From an uncultured Dehalococcoidales bacterium (GTDB taxonomy: Bacteria > Chloroflexota > Dehalococcoidia > Lucifugimonadales > Lucifugimonadaceae), in NCBI GenBank assembly GCA_964424025.1, contig CAYRHG010000072.1, positions 646-64,645 of the forward strand: a DNA stretch of 64,000 nt. Reading direction: 5' to 3'. Every line of letters starts with the position of its first letter. Within the stretch, counting starts at the first letter, position 1. The position numbers and the translations under genes were made by a program. The notes under the pieces were generated by a model, which was given only the letters and a program-made list of their open reading frames with translations, was not told where the DNA came from and searched no databases. Of this stretch, positions 3,827-22,231 are shown in pieces.

Positions 3827-4180
3827 GTGTTAGCAACAGAACATATCGACACCGCCCGGCAATTCCTTCTCGACGCCGACCGAGAATACGAAGCTGGGGA
3901 CATCCTCCAAGCATCCGAGAAGCTCTGGGGCGCCGCGTCGCATGTTGTCATCGCAGAACTCAAAAGACGCGGAATAGAGTCTAGGACTCATCGTTCCCTA
4001 GTTGAGGGCGTCGAGATGCTCGCCGAAGAAAACAACATACCCTCGCTCGCAGATTGGTTCGTCGCCGCCCAAAGGTTACACTCGAACTTCTACAACGGCG
4101 ATCTGGACGACTGGAACTTCGAACTACATCGCGGCCGCGTTCATCAATTCGTCGACCGCATGATCGAACTGAACGGCTAG
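3827..4180 (+). CDS. PaREP1/HEPN-like small helical protein (copy 2, tandem paralogue)
   Basis: 117-aa ORF with the same GTG-TTA-GCA-ACA-GAA-CAT-ATC-GAC start as copy 1. Colinear with copy 1 and has an R-x6-H motif (RGIESRTH). Confidence 0.55.
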   Translation: MLATEHIDTARQFLLDADREYEAGDILQASEKLWGAASHVVIAELKRRGIESRTHRSLVEGVEMLAEENNIPSLADWFVAAQRLHSNFYNGDLDDWNFELHRGRVHQFVDRMIELNG

Positions 4181-4842
4181 GATAGCCGATTTTTCGGTAA
4201 CTTCAAACCGGTGTCGAGCTTGTTGCGAACCTCCCGCTTAACTCGAGACACGAGTTGGTCTTCGTACTCATCGAGGAATTGCGCGACGATTCCAGCATCG
4301 TGAACCACCAATTCTCGAAGTGCCCACGAAAGCGCCTTAACGACCATATCGTCAGGGTCGTCCGCGAGCATTCGACAAACTTTCAAAGTCCTTGCAGCAT
4401 CTCCCGCACCTCCGTGCGATCGCACGTTCAACGCTACTGTGCTAACTAAAGCCGCTCTCCGCCACCAACGATCATCAGATCGTGCCCAACGGAATATCGT
4501 CTCATCGCCGATCAACCCGTCGCGCCAAGCCGGACCGGCCAGAATGCGAGCAAAAGCATCAACCGTATGCCAACTGTCGATGCCTGATCCTAGCTGATCT
4601 ACGACTCGGTCATCGAGTTGAAGATACGCTCCTTCGTGGTTCGCAATAACTTCATACGCAACCCATCGCTGACCGGAATTGCCAATCAGTTCCGATGCCG
4701 CTTCGAACACCAATGAAGGCTGTTCGTTGGACAGAGAGGCCGATAGACGCCTCCGTAATCTCCTGACGGCACCGGTGTTTCGCACCGTGAGCGAATCGAC
4801 CTCAGCCGCGAAATCCGCCGCGATCTGAGAGGCATGGCTCAT
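4177..4842 (-). CDS. DNA alkylation repair protein (AlkD/AlkC-like HEAT-repeat family)
   Basis: 221-aa ORF. RWWRRAALVSTVALN and VVKALSWALRELV motifs are typical of the DNA_alkylation (HEAT-like repeat) family. Confidence 0.7.
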   Translation of the reverse strand: MSHASQIAADFAAEVDSLTVRNTGAVRRLRRRLSASLSNEQPSLVFEAASELIGNSGQRWVAYEVIANHEGAYLQLDDRVVDQLGSGIDSWHTVDAFARILAGPAWRDGLIGDETIFRWARSDDRWWRRAALVSTVALNVRSHGGAGDAARTLKVCRMLADDPDDMVVKALSWALRELVVHDAGIVAQFLDEYEDQLVSRVKREVRNKLDTGLKLPKNRLS

Positions 4843-4857
4843 TTTGGCGGGTGAGCT

Positions 4858-6855
4858 CTAGTCGAGATTCCTAACCTCGACGACATCATCTCCGATGTCA
4901 TCAGCAGCTTCGAAGCCAAGTACCTTTCCGTAGAAGTAAAGCTCGGCCTCTTGCGCTCTGATTATGTTCGCGGCCTGCCTGAATCCATGCTGTTCTCCTG
5001 GGAAACCGATATAGGCGTAAGGCAGCCCCTTCGATTCCAGAGCATCCACCATGATCTCCGCTTGCGACGGCGGAACGATCTCGTCTTCGAGCCCTTGCAA
5101 GATGATCATCGGCGTTGCCAGTTGGTCCATGAAGTTGATGGCAGACCGGTCGTGGTACCGTTGCGCTTCTTCCGGATAGGGCCCGACCAAAGAATCGAGA
5201 TAACGCGATTCGAACTTGTGCGTGTCGCCGATAAACACCATCAGGTCCGCGATGCCGTAGAGCGCGGCTCCAGCGGCAAAGAAGTCCTCGAAGGTCAACG
5301 CGTTGATCGTCGTATAACCACCCGCCGACCCGCCGCGAATTATGACTCGGTCCTTGTCGACTAAGCCTTGATCGATCAGATATTGCGCCGCGGCGATGCA
5401 GTCGTCTGTGTCATAGACACCCCACTTGCCCTTCAGCGCGTCGCGATATTCTTTGCCGTAACCTGATGAGCCTCGGTAGTTCACATCGACGACCGCGAAA
5501 CCGCGGCTTGTCCAGTAATGAGTCGAGAGGTCTAAACCCGTGCCAGATGCGGATGTTGGGCCACCGTGGCAGATAGTGACCAGCGGTGGAAGTTCGTCGT
5601 CGGGCGCAGTGAAGTCTCTGTTGGTCGGTTCGTAGTAGAACGCGTGGGCTTGACCATCGTCCGTGGTTGGGAAGATTATGTGTTTGGGCGAGGACATATA
5701 TCCCGGGTCAATGGCGATGTCGCTAGGGGCGTAGATAGTGGAGCATGTCTCTGTTTCGAGATCTAGGCTGACGATGGCGGGTTCCCGGGTGGGTGATGCT
5801 CCGACAAAGAGGATGGTTGCGCCGTCAGGGCCAGCGGTAATGAAGGAGATTTCGCTGTAGGGCACCGAGATGCTGTGCGGCAGATGGTGCGACTCGCTCT
5901 CCACGATCAAGATCGAGCCGTCGGTCACTCCTCCCTTGCCTAAGGCGACCTTGCCGTCTGACAGATGTGCGTATGACGTGAATCCGAACTGCCAGTCGGG
6001 GCGGCCATAATCCGCCTGTTCATGAAGGAGGTTGATAGGTTCGCCGTCTTTCCAGAGATGGATATTCCACCAGCCGGTCCGGTCGGTTACAAAGTGAAGA
6101 ATGCCATTGTTGCTCCAAGTCGGCTGGACGACGCTCTCGCCAGTGTCGTCGATTAGCTTCGCCGTCGTGCTGACAGTGGCAGCGTTTTGGTCGAAAGAAC
6201 CTGAAACCAGCGAGTTACCGTCCCACGGCATATTGGGGTGGTTCCACTCGGTCCACACGATGCCGTCGTGATTCGCGGCGACTCTCGGTGCGCAATAGAA
6301 GTCGCGGCCGCTGGCTACGACATGCGCATCACCGGTCAACGTGTCGATCGACACGATCTCATTCGTCGCCTCCTCGCCATCATCTGTGTGGGTTTCTCGG
6401 ACGCAGAGCAGGAACTTGCCGTTTGGCGTCAGCGTGAGGTCGGCGTAACGGGCGCCTCTGGGGATTGGAGGAGCGTCCGTCAGCGGTTCGATCGCACCGT
6501 CGGGATCCTGCCTGTAAATCCGCTGGTCCACCCAGTTCGTCAAAAAGATCGTCCCGTTCCTTACCGTGTACGATCCGCCGCCGTACTCATGCACGGCGTT
6601 GCGAACGTTGAAACCCGGCGGCGTGAGCGTGTCCACCCGACCCTCGGCGTTCCGGCGCATCACGACGATCCGCCCGCCCTCGGCAGGCCTCGCGTCGAGC
6701 CAGTAGATGTCGCTGCCGTCAACCTTGATTTCGTTCAGTCGTCGCTTACCGCCGCTAATCAGCATTGCGGCAGATATCGGCGATTTCCATGATCCATAAG
6801 GTGCTACATTTGGCATGGCTAAAAGATCTCTCTGAGATTGAACGGGCTGAACCAA
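4858..6855 (-). CDS. S9 family serine peptidase (prolyl oligopeptidase / acylaminoacyl-peptidase-like)
   Basis: 665-aa ORF. N-terminal beta-propeller-like region; C-terminal alpha/beta-hydrolase domain with nucleophile elbow GGSAGGY and downstream D and H positions. Confidence 0.85.
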   Translation of the reverse strand: MVQPVQSQRDLLAMPNVAPYGSWKSPISAAMLISGGKRRLNEIKVDGSDIYWLDARPAEGGRIVVMRRNAEGRVDTLTPPGFNVRNAVHEYGGGSYTVRNGTIFLTNWVDQRIYRQDPDGAIEPLTDAPPIPRGARYADLTLTPNGKFLLCVRETHTDDGEEATNEIVSIDTLTGDAHVVASGRDFYCAPRVAANHDGIVWTEWNHPNMPWDGNSLVSGSFDQNAATVSTTAKLIDDTGESVVQPTWSNNGILHFVTDRTGWWNIHLWKDGEPINLLHEQADYGRPDWQFGFTSYAHLSDGKVALGKGGVTDGSILIVESESHHLPHSISVPYSEISFITAGPDGATILFVGASPTREPAIVSLDLETETCSTIYAPSDIAIDPGYMSSPKHIIFPTTDDGQAHAFYYEPTNRDFTAPDDELPPLVTICHGGPTSASGTGLDLSTHYWTSRGFAVVDVNYRGSSGYGKEYRDALKGKWGVYDTDDCIAAAQYLIDQGLVDKDRVIIRGGSAGGYTTINALTFEDFFAAGAALYGIADLMVFIGDTHKFESRYLDSLVGPYPEEAQRYHDRSAINFMDQLATPMIILQGLEDEIVPPSQAEIMVDALESKGLPYAYIGFPGEQHGFRQAANIIRAQEAELYFYGKVLGFEAADDIGDDVVEVRNLD

Positions 6856-10537: not shown

Positions 10538-10740
10538 GGAGAGGATGATACGAACAATCCCGACAATTGACGCCCACGAATCGCGTCGATTTGACGCGCA
10601 TGTTGATCGATGCGTACACTTGTTGACCAAATCCTTCGATGATTTAAAGGCAACGAACGGGATGAGTAAGTTCGTTTCTCGCCATCTACAGAGAGCCGGT
10701 ACGACCCGCTGAAAGTCCGGCATGGCGCAACGAAACTGAA

Positions 10741-10925
10741 TTGGTCCTGGAAGCTGTTTCGGGGAAACGCCCTTAGGGCGGAGTATCTGAAACCGGAGTT
10801 GGATCCGTTAAAAATCCTGAATCAAGTTGCGGCGTGAAACCGCGCCGAAACAGGGTGGCACCGCGGGCCACGCCCGTCCCTGTCCCAAAAACCAAAAAAG
10901 TTGGGGCGGGGATTTTCTTTTTGGA
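10741..10925 (+). promoter_or_regulatory. T-box riboswitch leader (probable Trp specifier) upstream of trpS
   Basis: T-box sequence aaacAGGGTGGCACCGCGgg at 10848-10866, preceded by a short Stem III-like hairpin (ggcg..cgcc). Stem I region has a GAGUA element and UGG followed by A at 10800-10803 on the 3' side. Terminator hairpin plus T-run follows. Confidence 0.7.
10873..10922 (+). terminator. intrinsic terminator of the T-box leader
   Basis: cccgtccc (10873-10880) pairs with ggggcggg (10903-10910), 8 bp including one G-U. Followed by gattttcttttt. The stem's 5' arm is C-rich and so can compete for the G-rich T-box sequence (antiterminator logic). Confidence 0.65.
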
Positions 10926-10957
10926 AATTCCGAACCTCGAAAAGAGACAGCGAAACG

Positions 10958-12022
10958 ATGACCGCGACAACCACTGAAACCACCAACCGAAAGCACTTCG
11001 ACGTTAAACCCGGCGCCAAACCCCGCATCTTGACAGGCATCAGACCTACCGGCGCGCTTCACCTCGGGCACTACGTCGGAGCTCTCAAGAACTGGTTGGC
11101 ATTGCAAGACGAGTACGAGTGCTACTTCCTGATCGCCGATTATCAAGCTCTCGGCGACCACTTCCACGACATCGACCTGATCAGGGAGTCCGTCATCGAC
11201 GTCACCCTCGACTGGCTCGCTGTCGGCCTGGACCCCGAAAAATCATCGTTTGTGGTCCAAAGCTACGTGCCAGAACATGCCGAGCTGACGATGTTGCTCT
11301 CATTCATCACTCAGCTTGGAATGTTGGAGCGAAACCCGACGCTCAAATCCGAGATCGACAGCTTGCCAGTCGAACGCAGAACTGTTGGCTTCTACAACTA
11401 CCCCATGAGCCAAGTCGCCGACATCTTGCTCCCCCGCGCGCACCTCGTTCCGGTCGGCGAGGATCAAGCTCCCCACATCGAGATGACGCGCGAGGTCGCC
11501 CGCAAGTTCAACCGCATGTTCGGCCGCGTCTTCCCCGAACCGGGCACCCTGATTGGAGACGTCGGCAGATTGGTGGGTGTCGACGGCGACTCCAAGATGA
11601 GCAAGTCAAAGGGCAACGCGATCATGCTCAGCGATCCCACTGATGAAGTGAACAAAAAAGTCCGAAGCATGTTCACCGACCCGAATCGCATCAGAGCCGA
11701 CATTCCGGGTCGCGTCGAAGGAAACCCAGTCTTCGAATATCACGACGCCTTCAATCCCGATGAAGCGCAGATCAACGACTTCAAAGATCGCTATCGCAAG
11801 GGCAAAGTCGGTGATGTTGAGGTGAAGGTAGCGCTGGCAGAGGCTTTAAACGATTTCCTCGATCCGGTCCGCGAACGCCGGGCGCATTTCCAAAAAAACA
11901 TGCCTTTCGTTGAAGACGTACTGATGCAGGGCGTTCGGCGAGGCAGGGCGATCGCCAAAGAGACGATGCAGAGAGTGCGCGACGCAATGCGTATTAGTTC
12001 ATACACGTCGTCTTGGTCGTAG
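10958..12022 (+). CDS. trpS: tryptophan--tRNA ligase
   Basis: ORF 10901..12022. ATG 10958 lies just after the leader terminator. Class I motifs GALHLGHY (HIGH) and KMSKSKGN (KMSKS), with TrpRS-like overall pattern. Confidence 0.9.
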   Translation: MTATTTETTNRKHFDVKPGAKPRILTGIRPTGALHLGHYVGALKNWLALQDEYECYFLIADYQALGDHFHDIDLIRESVIDVTLDWLAVGLDPEKSSFVVQSYVPEHAELTMLLSFITQLGMLERNPTLKSEIDSLPVERRTVGFYNYPMSQVADILLPRAHLVPVGEDQAPHIEMTREVARKFNRMFGRVFPEPGTLIGDVGRLVGVDGDSKMSKSKGNAIMLSDPTDEVNKKVRSMFTDPNRIRADIPGRVEGNPVFEYHDAFNPDEAQINDFKDRYRKGKVGDVEVKVALAEALNDFLDPVRERRAHFQKNMPFVEDVLMQGVRRGRAIAKETMQRVRDAMRISSYTSSWS

Positions 12023-13707: not shown

Positions 13708-14280
13708 ATGCTGCTACTCATAGACAACTACGACAGCTTCACCTACAACCTCTTCCAGTACCTATCCGAACTCGGCGAGGATGTGGAGGTCGTGCGCAAC
13801 GACAAGGCCACCGTCCGAGAATTGGCCGACATGCAACCCGAACGCCTCGTCGTTTCACCGGGACCCTCACATCCGCGCAACGCCGGCATCTCGATCGAAG
13901 CCATCCAACACTTCGCCGGCAAGATACCCGTCCTGGGCGTCTGCCTAGGTCACCAAGCGATCGGAGAAGCGTTCGGTGGCATCGTCGACCACGCAGGCGA
14001 GTTGAAACACGGCAAAACCTCGATGATCGAACACGACAACAAAGGCGTATTCAAAGACCTACCCAACCCGTTCGAAGCCGTCCGTTACCACTCGCTGGCC
14101 GTCCAGCCCGACGCCGTACCGCCCGGCTTCGAAGTCTCCGCCCGATCCGCCGAAAGCGGCGTAATCATGGGAATGCGCCATCCCGAAATGCCCATCGAAG
14201 GCGTCCAATTCCATCCCGAGTCGATACTGACACGGCCGGGGAAGGATCTGTTGCGGAACTTTTTGGAGATGAGGGTGTGA
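13708..14280 (+). CDS. trpG: anthranilate synthase component II (glutamine amidotransferase)
   Basis: 190-aa ORF. LLIDNYDSFTYNL start, catalytic GVCLGHQ, and HPES near the C-terminus. Confidence 0.9.
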   Translation: MLLLIDNYDSFTYNLFQYLSELGEDVEVVRNDKATVRELADMQPERLVVSPGPSHPRNAGISIEAIQHFAGKIPVLGVCLGHQAIGEAFGGIVDHAGELKHGKTSMIEHDNKGVFKDLPNPFEAVRYHSLAVQPDAVPPGFEVSARSAESGVIMGMRHPEMPIEGVQFHPESILTRPGKDLLRNFLEMRV

Positions 14281-14312: not shown

Positions 14313-14654
14313 ATGACGAAACTGCCGAATGCACACCGGGCAGAAGTCGCGAAGACGAAAGTCGTTGACTATCTGCTGTCCATTTGGCATCCAAGAGGTC
14401 GAGCCAAGGCGAGGTTCTTTCTCGGTTTTGGTTTCGATCCTGACGGATGGGCTGATTTCGCCAACGCTTTGGTTCAACACGCGGCAGCTGGTGAGGTTAC
14501 GAGCACTGTAGAGACTGCACACGGTATATGCTATCGAGTAAACGGAGTTATCGAGACGCCAGACGGACGCAATCCGCAGATCAGCACAGTGTGGCAAATC
14601 GACTGGGGGCATGAAAACCCAAGAATCGTAACTGCATACCCGCTAAACAGGTGA
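14313..14654 (+). CDS. DUF6883-like protein
   Basis: 113-aa ORF. KLPNA......K..DYLLS..HPRGR.KARFF..FGF pattern matches my recollection of DUF6883-domain proteins. Confidence 0.6.
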   Translation: MTKLPNAHRAEVAKTKVVDYLLSIWHPRGRAKARFFLGFGFDPDGWADFANALVQHAAAGEVTSTVETAHGICYRVNGVIETPDGRNPQISTVWQIDWGHENPRIVTAYPLNR

Positions 14655-14657
14655 GAC

Positions 14658-14906
14658 ATGTTTGAAGAACACAAGCTGGTTGTGCTAACGGATCATGTCA
14701 AGGGCCACGAGAACGAGGAGTTAAGCCCTGGCGATGTCGGAACCGTTGTGTATATACATAATGGTGGCGAGGCTTATATTGTCGAATTCATGTCGTTGGA
14801 AGGTGAAACGGTGGCTCTTGCCACAGTCCGCCATTCCCAAGCCCGTGCCGTAGCAAGAGACGACATCTCCCACGCTAGAACGATGGCTCCTTCGGTTGCG
14901 GCGTGA
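14658..14906 (+). CDS. DUF4926-like protein
   Basis: 82-aa ORF starting 3 nt after the upstream stop. VVLT.........L.PGDVGTVVYIH.GGEAYIVEF....GETVA pattern matches my recollection of DUF4926 proteins, the usual DUF6883 partner. Confidence 0.6.
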   Translation: MFEEHKLVVLTDHVKGHENEELSPGDVGTVVYIHNGGEAYIVEFMSLEGETVALATVRHSQARAVARDDISHARTMAPSVAA

Positions 14907-15199: not shown

Positions 15200-16246
15200 A
15201 TGAACATCCAACAAGGCATCCAAGCAGCCGTCGACGGCATCGACCTCTCGCAATCCGAAGCCGCCGATGTCATGGCGCAGATTATGGGCGGCGAGGCCAC
15301 CGAAGCTCAGTTCGGCTCGTTCGTGACCGCGCTCCGCATGAAAGGCGAAACACCTGAAGAGATCGCCGGCATGGCCTCGGTGATGCGAGATGTGTCGCTG
15401 CACGTAAACAGCGGCGTCGAGACCGTCGACACCTGCGGCACCGGCGGCGACGCTAAAGGTTGGTTCAACATCTCCACGGCCGCCGGATTCGTCGTCGCAG
15501 GCGCCGGTGTGCACGTCGCCAAACACGGTAACAGGGCGATGTCCGGATCAACAGGCAGTGCGGACGTTCTCGAAGCTCTCGGGGTCAACATCCTGCTCGG
15601 ACCAGAGGGAGTATTTCGCTGCATCAACGAAGCCGGCATCGGATTCATGTTCGCTCAGGCTTTTCATCCCGCCATGCGGTTTGCAGGACCGCTCCGACCA
15701 CAGATCGGCATCCGTACCGTGTTCAACATCCTCGGACCGCTAACCAATCCAGCAGGTGCGACACGTCAAGTCTTGGGCGTCGCCGACCGCGCGACCGCCG
15801 AGAAGATCGCAAAGGCGCTTCAGCTGCTCGGAACGGATTACGCATTGGTGGTGCACGGTGAGTCAGGTGCCGACGAAGTCGACATCGAGGGGCACACCCT
15901 GATGTTCCAAGTAACACCCGACATCTTAAAGCGACGCCGGACCCGCCCCGCCGACTTCGGTCTGCCCGAAGGCGATCGCGAGCATCTGGTCGCAGAGTCG
16001 GTAGAACACAGCGCTGAGATCATCCGAACCGTCCTCTCGGGCGCGGGTGGCGAACACAACGCTCCGCCAAGCCCCGAACGCTCCCGATACAACGTAGTCG
16101 CGATAAACGCCGCTGTCGCACTTCTTGCCGCAGGCAAAGCAGAAAGCTTCAACGACGCCGCCCTAATGGCCAAAGACAGCATCGACAGCGGTGCCGCCGC
16201 CGCGAAACTCGCTGCCTTGGCCAAAGTCAGCAGCGGCTTAAGTTGA
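15200..16246 (+). CDS. trpD: anthranilate phosphoribosyltransferase
   Basis: 348-aa ORF. CGTGGD, HGNRA.S and NILGPLTNPA motifs. Confidence 0.95.
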   Translation: MNIQQGIQAAVDGIDLSQSEAADVMAQIMGGEATEAQFGSFVTALRMKGETPEEIAGMASVMRDVSLHVNSGVETVDTCGTGGDAKGWFNISTAAGFVVAGAGVHVAKHGNRAMSGSTGSADVLEALGVNILLGPEGVFRCINEAGIGFMFAQAFHPAMRFAGPLRPQIGIRTVFNILGPLTNPAGATRQVLGVADRATAEKIAKALQLLGTDYALVVHGESGADEVDIEGHTLMFQVTPDILKRRRTRPADFGLPEGDREHLVAESVEHSAEIIRTVLSGAGGEHNAPPSPERSRYNVVAINAAVALLAAGKAESFNDAALMAKDSIDSGAAAAKLAALAKVSSGLS

Positions 16247-16386
16247 ACGGGATTGGATATGTTTCCGCATCAACGGATCGAGAATACCCCGCCGAGGCGA
16301 CGAAGTTTTCGACGGTGTAACATGTCGTAAGCCCACTTCGGGTGCTCGGTAGCGTCCATCCGCGCGGTATCATTCCGAGCGGATTC

Positions 16387-17649
16387 ATGATCTCGACGAA
16401 AGTAAAACCCACACTCGACCGATACGGTAACTCCTTGCGTTACCGCGATTTCCGATGGGTGATGCTCGGCAGCTTGGGCGGTCAATCCGCCTATTGGGCA
16501 TTGATCATCGCGCGCGGGGTGCTGGTGTTGGAGATGACGAATTCGTCTGCGTGGGTGGGGGTAGCCACGTTCGCTGCGATGGTTCCGCGGTTCTTGATGC
16601 CGCCAGTCGCCGGCTATCTCGCCGATCGGTTCGACCGCCGCAATGTGCTCGTGATCGCATACGTGCTCCAGTTCTTCAACGTACTGGCTCTGGCAGGGTT
16701 GGCTTTCGCGGACATGTTGACGATAGGGATATTGGTCGCGTTGTCATTGCTTAACGGTAGTTTCAGGGCCTTCCAGATGACGGCGACCCAGGCTTTGGTG
16801 CCGAATCTTGTCCCGCAGCGCGACTTGTTGAACGCGATCGCTCTCAACCAGATGTCGCTGCAAGGCTCGCGACTGGTCGGGCCCGCGCTGATCGCTCCGG
16901 CGTTGCTGACTAGCGGCACGAGCGCCGCGTTCCTCGCCTGTGCAGCCTTGTACGTGGTCAGCATCGTGTCGGTCGTGGCGATACAGACCCGGTCGAGCGG
17001 CGCGCTGACGAAAGGCGCGGGGATGATCCAGAGCTTGGTCGAAGCCGGATCATACGCTTGGGCCGATACCCAGTTGAGATTCCTGTTCATCCTGATCGCC
17101 TTGCACTGCGCGATGACGATGTCCTTCGAGACGGTGTTGCCGGTCCTTTCAAAAGAAGTGTTGGACAATCCCGAAAACGCCAACACCCTGATGATGGCCG
17201 TAGGAGGAGGTGCATTAATCGGCGTGTTTGCCATCAGCGGGACGCGAGGAGCAACCAGTCGCGGCATGATCATGCTCGTCACCGCCGCCCTCAGCGGCGC
17301 GGCTATGTTGATTCTGGCCTTTGCGACTGATCTTCCTACCGCCATGCTGGGCGCAGCGGCAATGGGCGCCACTCAGGCAGCATTCATGGCGATCGCCGGA
17401 GCCATGGTCCAGTCGCTAGCCCCAGACGAAATGCGAGGCCGGATCACAGGTTTCAGTCACATCATCATCGGAGGCACGATGGCAGTATTGAATCTCGTCA
17501 ACGGCTTCGCAGCAGACATGTTCGGCGTCTCAGCCGTCCTCTTCGTAATGGGTCTCGGCTTCACCGCGATCGTCCTCGCAAGCCTAGCCGTAGGTCCCCT
17601 CCGGAACATCTACCGCGGCATAGCCGCAGCTCCCGCCCCGGCCGGGTAG
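16387..17649 (+). CDS. MFS transporter
   Basis: ORF 16342..17649; probable start ATG 16387. About 12 predicted TM helices and a G.LADRFDRR loop motif between TM2 and TM3. Confidence 0.75.
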   Translation: MISTKVKPTLDRYGNSLRYRDFRWVMLGSLGGQSAYWALIIARGVLVLEMTNSSAWVGVATFAAMVPRFLMPPVAGYLADRFDRRNVLVIAYVLQFFNVLALAGLAFADMLTIGILVALSLLNGSFRAFQMTATQALVPNLVPQRDLLNAIALNQMSLQGSRLVGPALIAPALLTSGTSAAFLACAALYVVSIVSVVAIQTRSSGALTKGAGMIQSLVEAGSYAWADTQLRFLFILIALHCAMTMSFETVLPVLSKEVLDNPENANTLMMAVGGGALIGVFAISGTRGATSRGMIMLVTAALSGAAMLILAFATDLPTAMLGAAAMGATQAAFMAIAGAMVQSLAPDEMRGRITGFSHIIIGGTMAVLNLVNGFAADMFGVSAVLFVMGLGFTAIVLASLAVGPLRNIYRGIAAAPAPAG

Positions 17650-17724
17650 ATTCCGTGCCACGTCTGAAGCCTCTTTGCACAAACATAGGGGCAACCATCG
17701 TGGTCGCTCTACCAGCCACTTATG

Positions 17725-17806
17725 CCCCTTTCGTGGGACGAAAGGGGCGCGAGCGCAGCGAGCGGGGTATGCAGGGGGAAGGGAAGGGTCCTGCCAACCA
17801 AACAAC
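17725..17806 (+). repeat. repeat unit A: 9-bp hairpin + G-rich tract + CCTGCCAACCAAACAAC
   Basis: cccctttcg/tggga/cgaaagggg (17725-17747), then a G-rich tract, then cctgccaaccaaacaac (17790-17806). Same architecture and 16/17-identical tail as unit B. Confidence 0.6.
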
Positions 17807-17819
17807 GGCCAACCCACAC

Positions 17820-17850
17820 TTGACTTACTTGATACATATGTATTAATATC
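17820..17850 (+). promoter_or_regulatory. promoter-like AT island (-35 TTGACT, AT-rich -10 region) containing the 12-bp palindrome ATACATATGTAT
   Basis: TTGACT at 17820-17825, 17-nt spacer, TTAATA at 17843-17848 (alternatives TATTAA and TAATAT). Stands out against GC-rich flanks, with no ORF downstream for ~830 nt. Confidence 0.4.
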
Positions 17851-17854
17851 AACA

Positions 17855-18467
17855 CCGAGGCACCCAAGCCTGCATTTAATCGCCGGCCAGGGCGCCCAAC
17901 GAAAAACGAAACATCGCCGCGTCGTGACGGGTCAGCGCAACCCTTCGAAGACGCAGCAAACACAATTGAATGCAATGGTCGCGGGCGGGGCTACACGGAG
18001 CCGCCAACACACGGCTCCCCGACGGTGCCCGCCAAAAACCCAGTAAGACGGGCCAAACGCGACCGGAAACCCGGTTACGAAGGCGGTTGTAGCTGTAGCG
18101 CTCGGAATGCGGAGACTTACTGCTGACTCCGACTACACAAGCGAGCCAGACGGACACTCCTTCCCCACAATTGGGGGCCTTAGATCCTCCCTCCTTCAGG
18201 AGGGGGCTAGGGGGAGGTCACGTTCAAGGGCCGAGCGAACGAGTCCTTCTATCCGGCAGACATCTACCCGCATCGTCGGGCGGGGGAGGCTACAGCGCTA
18301 GCGAGGGGGAACGAACCGAGCGATGACGGGGGCAGTCTTACAGATGCTCCCCGGAGGTCCGACGGACTGGCGACGTCGGGGGTGCTGGATCCTAAAGTGA
18401 AATCCAAGAAACCTATCGCACGCGATCCCAACGACGCGGCGATGATTCGATAAACCATCCTGTAATC
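17855..18467 (+). other. ORF-free, hairpin-rich G-rich segment (candidate structured RNA or long trpC leader)
   Basis: Only short, compositionally odd ORFs on either strand. Many local stem-loops (for example ggagccg/ccaacaca/cggctcc nested in gcgggc...gcccgc at ~17979-18045, and ccgacg/gactggcga/cgtcgg at ~18358-18378). No RNase P, tmRNA, SRP or tRNA signatures recognised. Confidence 0.3.
18187..18217 (+). repeat. GC hairpin + CTAGGGGGAGG tail (REP-like element)
   Basis: ctccctcc/ttca/ggaggggg (8 bp including one G-U) followed by ctagggggagg. Same hairpin-plus-CTAGGGKGAGG architecture as 18468-18504. Confidence 0.5.
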
Positions 18468-18535
18468 CCCTCTCCCTCGATGGGAGAGGGCTAGGGTGAG
18501 GGTGCGCCTTGTGGTCGCCCTACCAACCAAACAAC
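18468..18535 (+). repeat. repeat unit B: 9-bp hairpin + CTAGGGTGAGGGTG + CCTACCAACCAAACAAC
   Basis: ccctctccc/tcgat/gggagaggg (18468-18490), ctagggtgagggtg (18491-18504), cctaccaaccaaacaac (18519-18535). Confidence 0.6.
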
Positions 18536-18680
18536 CGGGGACCAAATCCCCCGATTAAACGCGCCTGAACAACAACCCAACATCCCCATCCATCCTGTCC
18601 ATCCATGCGAGTCCCCCGCCAGGCGAACTTCGTGATGTTTAAGATTAGGATTACCCTCCCCCTATGTTCTGGCGCCCCTC

Positions 18681-19511
18681 GTGACTCTCGATAACGGAAA
18701 AATGTCCATCCTCGATCGCATCGTCGCGGCGAAGCGGAATCGAATCGAGGACGACAAAGCAACAACGTCGTTGAGTGCGATGATCGGTGCGGCGGAAAAC
18801 GCTACTCACGAAGAGCCGGCGTTGCGGTTCGACGAGGCGATAGGCGCGCCTCGGTCGGTTGCGGTGATCGCAGAGATGAAAAGATCATCGCCATCTGCAG
18901 GTGTGATGGATGCCGATCTCGACCCAGGAGAGCGTGCCGAAGTTTATAGCCGCGCCGGTGCTGCGGCGATATCAGTGTTGACCGAGCAGGACTTTTTTCT
19001 AGGTTCGATTTTCGATCTTGAGACTACATCTCACATCGCACATCAACACGGAGTCGCCGTGCTGGAAAAGGACTTTGTAGTCAATGAATACCAGATCTAC
19101 CAAGCAAGAGCGCACGGTGCGGATACCGTACTTCTGATCATCGCGATTCTGGATCCCGTGCAGTACTACGACCTTTACGAGATCGCTACCGGCCTCGGCA
19201 TGGAGCCATTGGTGGAGGTTTTCGACGAACCAGAGCTGGAAATTGCACTAACGCAAGCTGAACCTCGGATCGTGGGCGTCAACAATCGAAACCTGAAGAC
19301 ATTGACCACATCCTTAGACGTATTCCCAAGGCTCGCGAAGCGCATTCCCGACGACGTGATCAAAGTTGCAGAGAGCGGCATGAAGAACGCTGACGACGTG
19401 AAACGTATGGTCGACGCGGGAGCGAAAGCGGTCCTCGTCGGGGAATCCCTCATGACGTCTGATGGCGATCCGTCCGACCTCATCGCACAGATGGCCGAGA
19501 TTACGGTATGA
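18681..19511 (+). CDS. trpC: indole-3-glycerol phosphate synthase
   Basis: 276-aa ORF (GTG 18681; alternative ATG 18702, MSILDRIVAAKR). IAEMKRSSPS and NNRNL motifs. Confidence 0.9.
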   Translation: MTLDNGKMSILDRIVAAKRNRIEDDKATTSLSAMIGAAENATHEEPALRFDEAIGAPRSVAVIAEMKRSSPSAGVMDADLDPGERAEVYSRAGAAAISVLTEQDFFLGSIFDLETTSHIAHQHGVAVLEKDFVVNEYQIYQARAHGADTVLLIIAILDPVQYYDLYEIATGLGMEPLVEVFDEPELEIALTQAEPRIVGVNNRNLKTLTTSLDVFPRLAKRIPDDVIKVAESGMKNADDVKRMVDAGAKAVLVGESLMTSDGDPSDLIAQMAEITV

Positions 19512-21279: not shown

Positions 21280-21421
21280 TGTGGTTTGAGAAATTGATCC
21301 AGATGTTTCGAGGTATTAAGTCGCCGTAGCGAGCCTGAATCCAAAAGGTACACAGACACGTTCGTTTGGAGCTGGCATTCGTGAGAACCACGATGCTAGC
21401 GCGTACTACGCTCGTCAATTG

Positions 21422-22231
21422 ATGCCAATCGGCGTTGACGCTGATCTCGATCCCAAACCTCGTCCCGATAACTCGTTGCCGGAACATGCTCGCAACCGGT
21501 TTTTCTGCAAGAGCAGCGAAAATATGGGGGATCTGCCGGACCGTTGTGTGCAACTAATGGTTACGTCGCCCCCGTATAACGTGGGCAAGGATTATGACGA
21601 CGATCTGTCAATGGTCCAGCATCTGGAATTGATACGTAGTGTCATGAGCGAAACATTCCGCGTACTTGTGGACGGTGGAAGGGCCTGCGTAAACGTCGCC
21701 AACATCGGACGTCGACCCTACATCCCGCTTCATGCATACGTCATACAAATCGCCGCCGCGACCGGGTTTTTCATGCGCGGAGAAATCATCTGGGACAAGG
21801 GAATGAGCGGTTCTTCAACCGCGTGGGGCAGTTGGATGTCGCCTGGGAACCCGACGCTTCGCGACACGCACGAGTACATCCTCGTCTTTCAGAAACCGCC
21901 ATTTGGCAGGAAACGTCCTGATGGACGCAGCGCGACGATCTCGCGGGACGATTTTCTCGAATACACGAAAAGTCGATGGACGATGGCTCCGACATCGGCG
22001 AAGCGCGCGATGCACCCGGCACCGTTCCCAGTCGAATTGCCACGAAGATTGATCGACCTATATACGTTTTCGGGTGAAGTAGTGTTGGATCCTTTCATGG
22101 GGACAGGAGCTACAGCGATCGCTGCGAATGAACTCGGACGAGTTTTCGTCGGTTATGAGATATCGGATGCATACGTTGATATCGCTTCCGATCGACTAGC
22201 CGATACGTCGTCGAAACCTGCAACCGAGTGA
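21422..22231 (+). CDS. site-specific DNA methyltransferase, beta-class N4/N6 family (SPPY motif suggests N4-cytosine)
   Basis: ORF 21419..22231. Motif IV TSPPY comes before motif I DPFMGTGAT (beta-class order). No restriction endonuclease gene is adjacent. Confidence 0.85.
   Translation: MPIGVDADLDPKPRPDNSLPEHARNRFFCKSSENMGDLPDRCVQLMVTSPPYNVGKDYDDDLSMVQHLELIRSVMSETFRVLVDGGRACVNVANIGRRPYIPLHAYVIQIAAATGFFMRGEIIWDKGMSGSSTAWGSWMSPGNPTLRDTHEYILVFQKPPFGRKRPDGRSATISRDDFLEYTKSRWTMAPTSAKRAMHPAPFPVELPRRLIDLYTFSGEVVLDPFMGTGATAIAANELGRVFVGYEISDAYVDIASDRLADTSSKPATE

Follow-up and report, generated by a model that had tools for sequence, protein, structure and literature searches.

Large bacterial RNAs with complex folds are rare, and new biochemistry has followed from each class discovered to date (RNase P, group I and II introns, OLE, GOLLD, ROOL and HEARO/omega-RNA). 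Those termed ornate, OLE, GOLLD and ROOL among them, usually exist as a single copy or on phages. For ROOL and GOLLD, covariation first pointed to kissing loops, which were later seen to bridge separate molecules within RNA-only cages (PMC12286853). Here we analyse a predicted RNA of ~600 nucleotides (nt) encoded in a 64,000-nt stretch of DNA, hereafter the window, from an uncultured Dehalococcoidales bacterium of the Chloroflexota (assembly GCA_964424025.1, contig CAYRHG010000072.1, positions 646 to 64,645). It lies within 17650-18680, between an MFS transporter gene and trpC in a tryptophan biosynthesis (trp) cluster. We find that this gap is an island of repeats, the main component of which is most likely a stand-alone gene encoding a large structured RNA. 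We lean, with a little better than even confidence, towards the view that this RNA represents an undescribed, probably mobile family and that it behaves as a non-autonomous mobile or duplicative element.

The element matches no named family that we tested. By analogy, it is like the ornate RNAs in size and complexity, and like mobile RNAs without open reading frames (ORFs) and miniature inverted-repeat transposable elements (MITEs) in genomic behaviour, an unusual combination. With OLE, ROOL, GOLLD, HEARO and raiA it shares a size of ~0.6 kb, many helices within long-range pairings, invariant unpaired loops, a kissing loop backed by covariation, a predicted transcription unit of its own and a function unknown at discovery; by analogy with the ROOL and GOLLD bridges, its loop-loop pairing could equally be intermolecular. 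It differs from these RNAs in matching none of their Rfam models, in coming from the Chloroflexota (Dehalococcoidia), in having at least five copies on one chromosome (OZ241984.1), in being flanked by repeats and in its absence from the phage and viral collections searched.

Other described systems share the genomic behaviour. ORF-less group II introns, which are mobilised in trans, are likewise multi-copy structured RNAs of 0.5-0.8 kb with an insertion-tolerant variable stem (their domain IV). However, the element has no domain V, no match to the Intron_gpII or group-II-D1D4 models and no GUGYG at its 5′ end, is intergenic and spares genes, and brings a promoter of its own together with a closing helix that links its ends, which group II introns lack. 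Promoter-carrying MITEs and repetitive extragenic palindromic (REP) repeats, such as Correia and ERIC, are also non-coding, dispersed, intergenic and promoter-bringing, with REP-like hairpins nearby; the element is 4-5 times longer, its unit does not end in terminal inverted repeats, and its compensatory changes, kissing loop and invariant loops would not be expected of a MITE. Non-coding RNAs of mobile elements (IS110 bridge RNA, IS200/IS605 omega-RNA and HEARO/IscB), for which non-autonomous RNA-only derivatives are known, place a structured RNA in a mobile unit, and the C/A-rich direct repeats at both ends of our element recall site-specific insertion beside a recognised motif. The element is nevertheless 2-3 times longer, has no Rfam HEARO match and carries a hypervariable loop that is independent of the insertion locus: we rejected this loop (around positions 40-75 of the core at locus L001) as a target guide, as a copy upstream of trpC (L042) shares its variant with one elsewhere (L165). 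Finally, hairpins at 18185-18219 and 18467-18504 have CUCUCC...GGAGAG followed by AGGGUGAGG, as in whalefall-1 (RF01762), a likeness that is sub-threshold (18.8 bits against a gathering threshold of 37; E = 0.09) and limited to these small repeats, not the 600-nt RNA.

The gap is the longest non-coding stretch in the window, where, by a crude gene call, the median intergenic gap is 52 nt and no other real gap exceeds ~420 nt. The original prediction had described it as unusually long and without credible ORFs, and both descriptions hold: its 1031 nt contain ORFs of at most 123 aa, Arg/Gly/Pro-rich and with no Pfam match. It had also placed a promoter-like AT island at the start of the segment; the island is real, but it lies 170 nt into the segment. 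Each stem that it had listed is present, and most of them are conserved helices. The proposed candidate large structured RNA is supported, as a discrete, promoter-bearing RNA with covarying helices and a kissing-loop contact, although the 1 kb that had been treated as a single object is composite, with REP-like hairpin repeats and a C/A-rich tail flanking the RNA gene.

No known RNA was recognised in the original prediction, and database searches agree. Rfam 15 (4227 models, among them RNase P, tmRNA, SRP, 6S, OLE, GOLLD, ROOL, HEARO, raiA and riboswitches) gave no match to the element at the gathering threshold, chance-level matches only at E ≤ 10 over 17300-19000, and nothing at E ≤ 1 on the copies in four relatives' loci (L001, L002, L170 and L171); ARAGORN found no tRNA or tmRNA. 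Phage and plasmid records gave no match using blastn in a distant mode. A scan of viral contigs with the gapped pattern ACAGCGC..CTGGCGAC..GCTGG returned 76 matches, none of which was confirmed by our covariance model of the 3′ core (R1). The 18-mer CGACGCGGCGATGATTCG, from the 3′ strand of the closing helix P1, matched one viral contig, by chance, and, among the metagenome matches listed, none resembled the element beyond the 18-mer, so that these too were taken as chance. Limited literature searches found no such RNA described in Chloroflexi or Dehalococcoidia.

The core of the discrete element spans 17816-18455, and nhmmer extends the homologous unit to 17816-18544. It carries TTGACT-N18-TAATAT, the only sigma-70-like site in 17400-18900, where 0.4 are expected, which would place the transcription start near 17856. 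The window, L001, L042 and L169 share one and the same promoter block (ACATATGTATTAATATCAACACC), and in L165-L168, L170 and L172 it is almost unchanged (L-numbers denote loci of relatives fetched for comparison). The two domains of the RNA are enclosed by P1, an inverted repeat (I1) with 95% complementary arms 505 nt apart. Both arms are conserved in all copies of the same type as the window copy (type 1), with an innermost pair that is U-A in the window and A-U in L001. Against shuffled controls, the + strand folds with a minimum free energy of -288 kcal/mol (z = -4.9), compared with z = -2.2 for the - strand.

Further copies were found through the spurious ORFs inside them, by searching a protein database with the ORFs, building a profile from the matches and fetching the contigs. 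These ORFs have only 7-9 relatives among billions of proteins, and the relatives, when traced to DNA, proved to be further copies of the element (a few weak matches were left aside). Gene callers place 49-270-aa 'hypothetical proteins' inside the copies; these annotations are artefacts. The total is 13 copies, one in the window and 12 in relatives, and these occupy at least 8 different gene neighbourhoods. R1 finds all eleven type-1 copies at 113-182 bits, plus two diverged copies.

The copies occupy varied contexts. On OZ241984.1 (2.99 Mb), L001 has a 1.55-kb MFS-trpC gap homologous to that of the window, L165 lies upstream of an acetyltransferase gene and a GFO oxidoreductase gene, and L166 lies upstream of three PhyH genes. 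Elsewhere, L042 and L167 are each upstream of trpC, L168 is upstream of an MR_MLE enolase-family gene, L170 is upstream of rpsP, and L171 and L172 each face a convergent gene; L169 is a further type-1 copy. A cluster look-up gave five distinct ORF variants on OZ241984.1, hence the estimate of at least five copies there, and the three that we aligned are 95-97% identical over ~760-800 nt. Sequence variants are mosaic among copies (ORF proteins P0122, P0126, P0135, P0142 and P0145 on OZ241984.1; P0134-P0144), a pattern that suggests gene conversion or recombination between two subfamilies. Presence of the element differs among species that share synteny. Across the 13 copies, no protein gene consistently adjoins the element, and none of these copies has a recombinase, TnpB or IscB gene beside it. 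Delivery of a promoter to a co-oriented downstream gene was considered and rejected: co-orientation occurs at 6/8 scorable loci, which is indistinguishable from chance.

Alignment of the copies points to helices maintained by compensatory substitutions across independent lineages. When the 13 copies were aligned to R1, 94.3% of cells in the 3′ core were paired, compared with 32-50% in slid registers, and both sides had changed in 14/27 pairs (26 cells). The covariation score of the core was 0.293, compared with 0.128 for shuffled alignments, and none of 500 shuffles reached 0.293. In the 5′ domain of type-1 copies, 98.6% of cells were paired (28-45% in slid-register controls) and 4 pairs had changed on both sides; the sister copies L170 and L172 alone differ by two double changes in this domain (CGUGGGC/GCUCACG versus CGCAGGC/GCCUGCG). 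A variable stem between the domains is kept with unrelated sequences, GGATCGATGT / ACATCGATCC in L001 and GCACC/GGTGC in L042. Helices contain 24 G-U cells and 7 A-C cells, and this excess argues that the pairing occurs on the + strand transcript, in agreement with the direction of the promoter.

The two domains also appear to be connected. In every type-1 lineage examined, the loops of two hairpins, Hk1 in the 5′ domain and Hc in the 3′ core, are complementary to each other, with lineage-specific sequences: 7 contiguous Watson-Crick pairs in the window (GUAAGAC/GUCUUAC; P ~0.0009 against shuffled loops), 9 in L001 (GAUAGGUU / AACCUAUC; P ~0.0001), 9 in L172 (AGGUUUUU / AAAAACCU; P ~0.0004) and 6 in L170 (AGGUUU/AAACCU; P ~0.02). 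Between the window and L001, both sides have changed at four pairs, and in a cross-lineage control the window loop forms only 2 pairs with the L001 partner.

Comparison with the flanking genes argues for constraint. Between the window and L001, 52% of 4-fold degenerate sites in the flanking genes are identical, while the element is ~70% identical, with exact blocks of 13-27 nt between diverged stretches; these values indicate constraint, with the caveat that a mobile element need not be as old as the lineages that host it. Several alternative pairings remain ambiguous alongside the proposed fold. Two were omitted from the model, CGCGGGCG / CGCACGCG and helix P3 (GGUCCGCG / CGCGACC), each of which competes with other helices and is invariant or ambiguous. 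Consensus folding with RNAalifold on plain MAFFT alignments was also discarded, as the near-identical L001 family dominated and covarying helices fell out of register; the alignments used here are model-based.

Two copies, in L002 and L010, belong to a second type (Table 1). Type-2 copies retain TTGAC(T/A) and a similar -10 block (CATCTGTTGTAATATAAACAAC), and share the invariant loops UACAG.GC, GGUCUGGCGAC, GCUGGA and AGCGAGCCAG. Their closing helix has an unrelated sequence at the equivalent position (GUGCUGCGCAGA / UCUGCGCAGCAU; L002 4848-4859 / 5422-5433), and the Ha stem is swapped, with CUCCUG/CAGGAG for CCGCG/CGCGG.

Small repeats surround the RNA gene. On its 5′ side, 17723-17778 (in repeat A) has blastn matches of 84-88% identity to several places in L002, L042, L004, L010 and L013, in both orientations, and the repeat A region holds one copy of a direct repeat (D4) shared with 18519-18535. 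On its 3′ side, repeat B is identical in copies of the L001 family, absent from L169 and present on its own, in either orientation, in L005, L010, L011 and L014. It is a possible 3′-end or processing hairpin of the transcript; as an intrinsic terminator it was rejected, as no U tract follows the hairpin, and we found no terminator-like site on the + strand. In the tail beyond it, GGTCGCCCTACCAACCAAACAACC (18513-18536) directly repeats sequence upstream of the promoter (17700-17718 and 17790-17806; D2 and D4). Related motifs of 32-39 nt, rich in C and A and nearly devoid of G (such as CCCATCATTCCAATCCCGCCCATCCCAGTTCA), partly in tandem units of ~94 nt, lie on both sides of the L001-family copies and always on the strand of the element; the direct repeats on the two flanks end in CAGTTCA(G/A)A. 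One version is conserved even beside the very diverged L171 copy. As an inference only, the tail or motifs could be Rho-loading or recombination sites.

The variable stem also hosts other small repeats in L169, L172, L171 and L002. One, with GAGTAACTACGGCTACGAC between GC-rich hairpin arms, is found at ~5120-5200 in L002 and at 5968-6050 in L171, where it recurs downstream (6408-6490). In this stem the window and L169 instead carry another repeat, a REP-like hairpin; small repeats seem to land there preferentially. Two independent metagenome assemblies end upstream of trpC within REP or C/A-rich repeats (L041 by ~460 nt, L043 by ~370 nt), as expected where contigs break because of repeats. L041 starts with the sequence that follows the REP hairpin of the element, and its genome probably also carries a copy.

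Table 1. Positions of the predicted RNA element, its parts and its surroundings. Positions refer to the window unless a locus is named.
Feature	Position	Strand	Sequence or remark
T-box leader (RF00230), full length	10644-10884	+	97.9 bits; sole above-threshold Rfam match in the window
trpS	10901-12022		Directly 3′ of the T-box; trpE next in cluster order
trpG	13708-14280		trp cluster
DUF6883 gene	14313-14654	+	Between trpG and trpD
DUF4926 gene	14658-14906	+	Between trpG and trpD, adjacent to DUF6883 gene
trpD	15200-16246		trp cluster
MFS transporter gene	16342-17649		Pfam-confirmed
REP-type dispersed repeat A	17715-17815	+	5′ flank of RNA gene
Repeat A hairpin	17725-17747		CCCCTTTCG-TGGGA-CGAAAGGGG, then GC-rich tail GCGAGCGCAGCGAGCGGGGTATGC, and CCAACCAAACAAC
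Sigma-70-type promoter	17820-17849	+	-35 TTGACT 17820-17825, N18, -10 TAATAT 17844-17849
Structured RNA body, predicted, ~600 nt	17856-18452	+	P0, P1, 5′ domain, variable stem, 3′ core
5′ hairpin P0	~17860-17899	+	
Closing helix P1, 19 bp	17907-17925 / 18431-18449	+	CGAAACATCGCCGCGTCGT / ACGACGCGGCGATGATTCG
5′ domain (model R2 match)	17970-18086	+	cmsearch 69.7 bits, E = 2.4e-19
P4	17984-17989 / 18028-18033	+	GGCGGG/CCCGCC; gcgggc/gcccgc of the original prediction
Hairpin ggagccg/cggctcc	17997-18003 / 18012-18018	+	Specific to the window lineage
Hairpin Hk1	18039-18041 / 18050-18052	+	CCC/GGG
Kissing-loop strand 1	18043-18049	+	GTAAGAC; Hk1 loop; predicted to pair with 18335-18341
Local hairpin	18062-18066 / 18071-18075	+	ACCGG/CCGGT; in 5′ domain
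Variable stem	18150-18219	+	Tip hairpin 18163-18176
Tip of variable stem	18163-18167 / 18172-18176	+	cccca/tgggg
REP-like hairpin in variable stem	18185-18219	+	CCTCCCTCC-TTCA-GGAGGGGG + CTAGGGGGAGG; resembles whalefall-1 motif
3′ core	18251-18395	+	cmsearch R1 113 bits, E ~1e-36; common to all types
Ha	18267-18271 / 18280-18284	+	3′ core
Most conserved block	18291-18329	+	TACAGCGCTAGCGAGGGGGAACGAACCGAGCGATGACGG; 3′ core
Hb	18296-18299 / 18319-18322	+	3′ core
Hc	18327-18334 / 18345-18353	+	gggggca/tgctcccc of the original prediction
Kissing-loop strand 2	18335-18341	+	GTCTTAC; Hc loop
Hd	18359-18364 / 18374-18379	+	Invariant loop CTGGCGA; ccgacg/cgtcgg of the original prediction
GCTGGA	18385-18390	+	3′ core
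REP-type repeat B	18467-18504	+	Hairpin CCCCTCTCCC-TCGAT-GGGAGAGGG, then CTAGGGTGAGGGTG
C/A-rich, G-poor tail	18505-18635	+	GC skew -0.25 to -0.29
trpC-proximal motif	18636-18649	+	TGTTTAAGATTAGG; outside the element, marks downstream limit of inserted material
trpC (IGPS)	18681-19511		Pfam-confirmed
C/A-rich motif sites	L001 4885-4974, 5820-5851; L041 100-323; L171 6522-6560		Also in flanks of L042, L166, L167 and L168
Type-2 copy	L002 5236-5399		30 bits; upstream of trpC, locus and orientation as in the window
Type-2 promoter	L002 4796-4801, 4818-4823		TTGACT, TAATAT
Type-2 copy	L010 587-422	Opposite	24 bits; upstream of MFS

A motif of the TGTTTAAGATTAGG type, TGTTTAA(G/C)ATT(A/G)GG, lies ~30-45 nt upstream of trpC in L001, L002, L004-L007, L009, L011, L012, L041 and L043, with or without an insertion, and is probably the -10 region of the native trpC promoter or an operator. 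As this motif lies 3′ of the inserted material and other relatives have short gaps, we interpret the extra kb as an insertion between the MFS gene and the native control region of trpC.

On the model that we propose, the sigma-70-type promoter would drive + strand transcription from ~17856, and the ~600-nt RNA would fold into two domains within the 19-bp P1. A kissing loop of 7-9 bp would tie the 5′ domain to the 3′ core, or to a second molecule. The invariant purine-rich loops of the 3′ core (UACAGCGCUA..GAG..GAAG, CUGGCGAC and GCUGGA) are the likely functional surface. The REP-like hairpin, or the C-rich and G-poor tail beyond it, is where the transcript would probably end. The unit, which recurs several times per genome, almost unchanged, in a single clade of uncultured Dehalococcoidia, may be moved by a function encoded elsewhere, with the RNA fold as the feature under selection; its position in the trp cluster would then be incidental, with read-through into trpC-trpF possible.

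We favour a non-autonomous mobile or duplicative element on the basis of near-identical copies within a genome, varied contexts, patchy presence, C/A-rich repeats on the same strand and the type switch in L002, where a type-2 copy occupies the site at which close relatives have type 1. Several observations weigh against the explanation as a whole, the structured RNA as well as its mobility. The covariation counts come from model-fitted alignments, which favour the proposed structure, and represent ~5-7 independent lineages. The L171 copy has no convincing -10 element, and the R2 model of the 5′ domain finds neither L171 nor the type-2 copies; the ~150-nt 3′ core is therefore the part common to the family. 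We infer transcription, the ends and processing of the transcript, mobility and any molecular function from sequence. We found no terminal inverted repeats and no partner enzyme; no target-site duplication could be made out, and the empty sites in L004, L005 and L011 are too diverged to define junctions. Finally, the three closest relatives (the window, L001 and L002) all have a copy at one and the same site upstream of trpC, which would also suit vertical inheritance of a host gene.

More tentatively, and with confidence well below even, the element could be a new class of self-propagating, protein-less, promoter-equipped RNA element, the fold of which is the machinery or the recognised substrate of its spread. 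Such an RNA might be a ribozyme, might recruit a host reverse transcriptase or recombinase, or might form RNA-only multimers via its kissing loops.

The rival that survives best, a real possibility that we nonetheless hold to be clearly the less probable, is a trans-acting large non-coding RNA that serves the host, encoded by a small paralogous gene family that is not mobile, kept similar by gene conversion and active as a ribonucleoprotein or an RNA-only assembly, in the manner of multi-copy sRNAs or of OLE, ROOL and GOLLD. The strong and conserved promoter fits such a gene, as does a structure kept while flanking synonymous sites are only 52% identical. The window, L001 and L002, closest by TrpC identity, carry their copies at one locus and in one orientation, the mosaic variants indicate gene conversion, and the cage-bridging kissing loops of ROOL and GOLLD (PMC12286853) offer a precedent. 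However, most relatives with the same synteny have no element near trpC, and the aligned copies within one genome, at 95-97% identity, sit in unrelated contexts with the same kinds of repeat on their flanks. The difference between the type-2 copy of L002 and the type-1 copies at that site is too large for vertical divergence, and assemblies break at the element. These observations are more readily reconciled with a non-autonomous mobile or duplicative element.

It is improbable that the element is purely a repeat of the DNA, a MITE-like remnant or one of a REP cluster, with pairings that reflect single-stranded DNA intermediates of transposition or recombination and no functional RNA. Its multiple dispersed, near-identical, ORF-less copies among REP-like hairpins and C/A-rich direct repeats are indeed a MITE sign, other small repeats enter the variable stem, and DNA hairpins also tolerate G-T wobble. 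Yet its sole long inverted repeat, P1, is internal: homology runs ~90 nt past each arm, as far as the conserved promoter in one direction and the REP hairpin in the opposite one. The multi-helix fold with its loop-loop contact and invariant unpaired loops is unlike known transposon ends, the promoter is among the most conserved blocks, also between types, and the excess of G-U over A-C fits a transcribed strand.

A long cis-regulatory leader or riboswitch for trpC-trpF, the second option of the original prediction, is very unlikely. The element does lie directly upstream of and co-oriented with trpC-trpF in the window, L001, L042, L167 and L002, and the operon has RNA regulation elsewhere (the T-box). 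Against this, other copies precede unrelated genes or face convergent ones, so that no constant gene class lies downstream, and most of the 18 relatives with trpD-MFS-trpC-trpF-GFO synteny have an MFS-trpC gap of 60-150 nt. The element has its own promoter, the trpC-proximal motif is kept 3′ of it, and between the RNA and trpC lie ~230 nt of REP hairpin and C-rich tail, with no terminator-like site on the + strand; none of the riboswitch or leader models of Rfam matches. A degraded protein-coding gene or unrecognised small protein, which the called ORFs of 49-270 aa inside copies and the real PLD-like gene at the equivalent site of L003 might suggest, is less likely still, as each of the six frames of 17850-18455 (606 nt) has 4-7 stops, only 3 of the 17 indels that separate the window from L001 have a length divisible by 3, the lineages share no open frame, the ORFs match no Pfam domain and have homologues only in other copies of the element, and substitutions follow the pattern of a paired RNA. 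Both the trp leader and the coding gene are thus effectively excluded.

The surroundings of the element set this insertion in context. The nearest public TrpC relatives of the window are from uncultured Dehalococcoidia metagenome-assembled genomes (66-87% identity). The upstream part of the trp cluster is probably controlled by tRNA-Trp sensing, given the T-box in front of trpS, and trpC-trpF are preceded by the inserted element and by a proximal motif of their own. Downstream of trpC the order is trpF, a GFO/IDH/MocA oxidoreductase gene, a DNA methylase gene and plsY. The cluster took in several foreign insertions: the DUF6883/DUF4926 pair, which may be a candidate accessory module of the toxin-antitoxin type, the MFS gene and the RNA element. 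At the MFS-trpC site of L003, a 370-aa gene with a PLD-like domain (4771-5883) stands in place of the RNA element, and the site is therefore an insertion hotspot. In L002, a tRNA gene (4128-4201, + strand; 68 bits) and a gene of the xanthine/uracil-permease family lie upstream of the repeat island and type-2 element, and no MFS gene was detected in the fetched part of the locus. The N6/N4 DNA methylase gene 3′ of the GFO oxidoreductase gene varies widely in length among close relatives, encoding 270 aa in the window (21419-22231), 300 aa in L043 (3028-3930) and 522-529 aa in L041 (3187-4755) and L167 (5759-7348).

For the organisms concerned, these results account for spurious ORFs and assembly breaks in their genomes, and they show trpC-trpF separated from the T-box-controlled upstream genes by what we predict to be a foreign transcription unit. 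In the element, a fold as complex as those of the ornate RNAs is combined with genomic behaviour like that of a mobile repeat: near-identical copies, its own promoter and no protein. Its source is uncultured soil Dehalococcoidia, for which our limited literature searches gave no described large structured RNA. Mobility would predict precise insertions beside the CAGTTCAGAC motif. If the tentative reading of a self-propagating RNA is true, the element would represent a new kind of RNA-centred mobile genetic element in the Chloroflexota.

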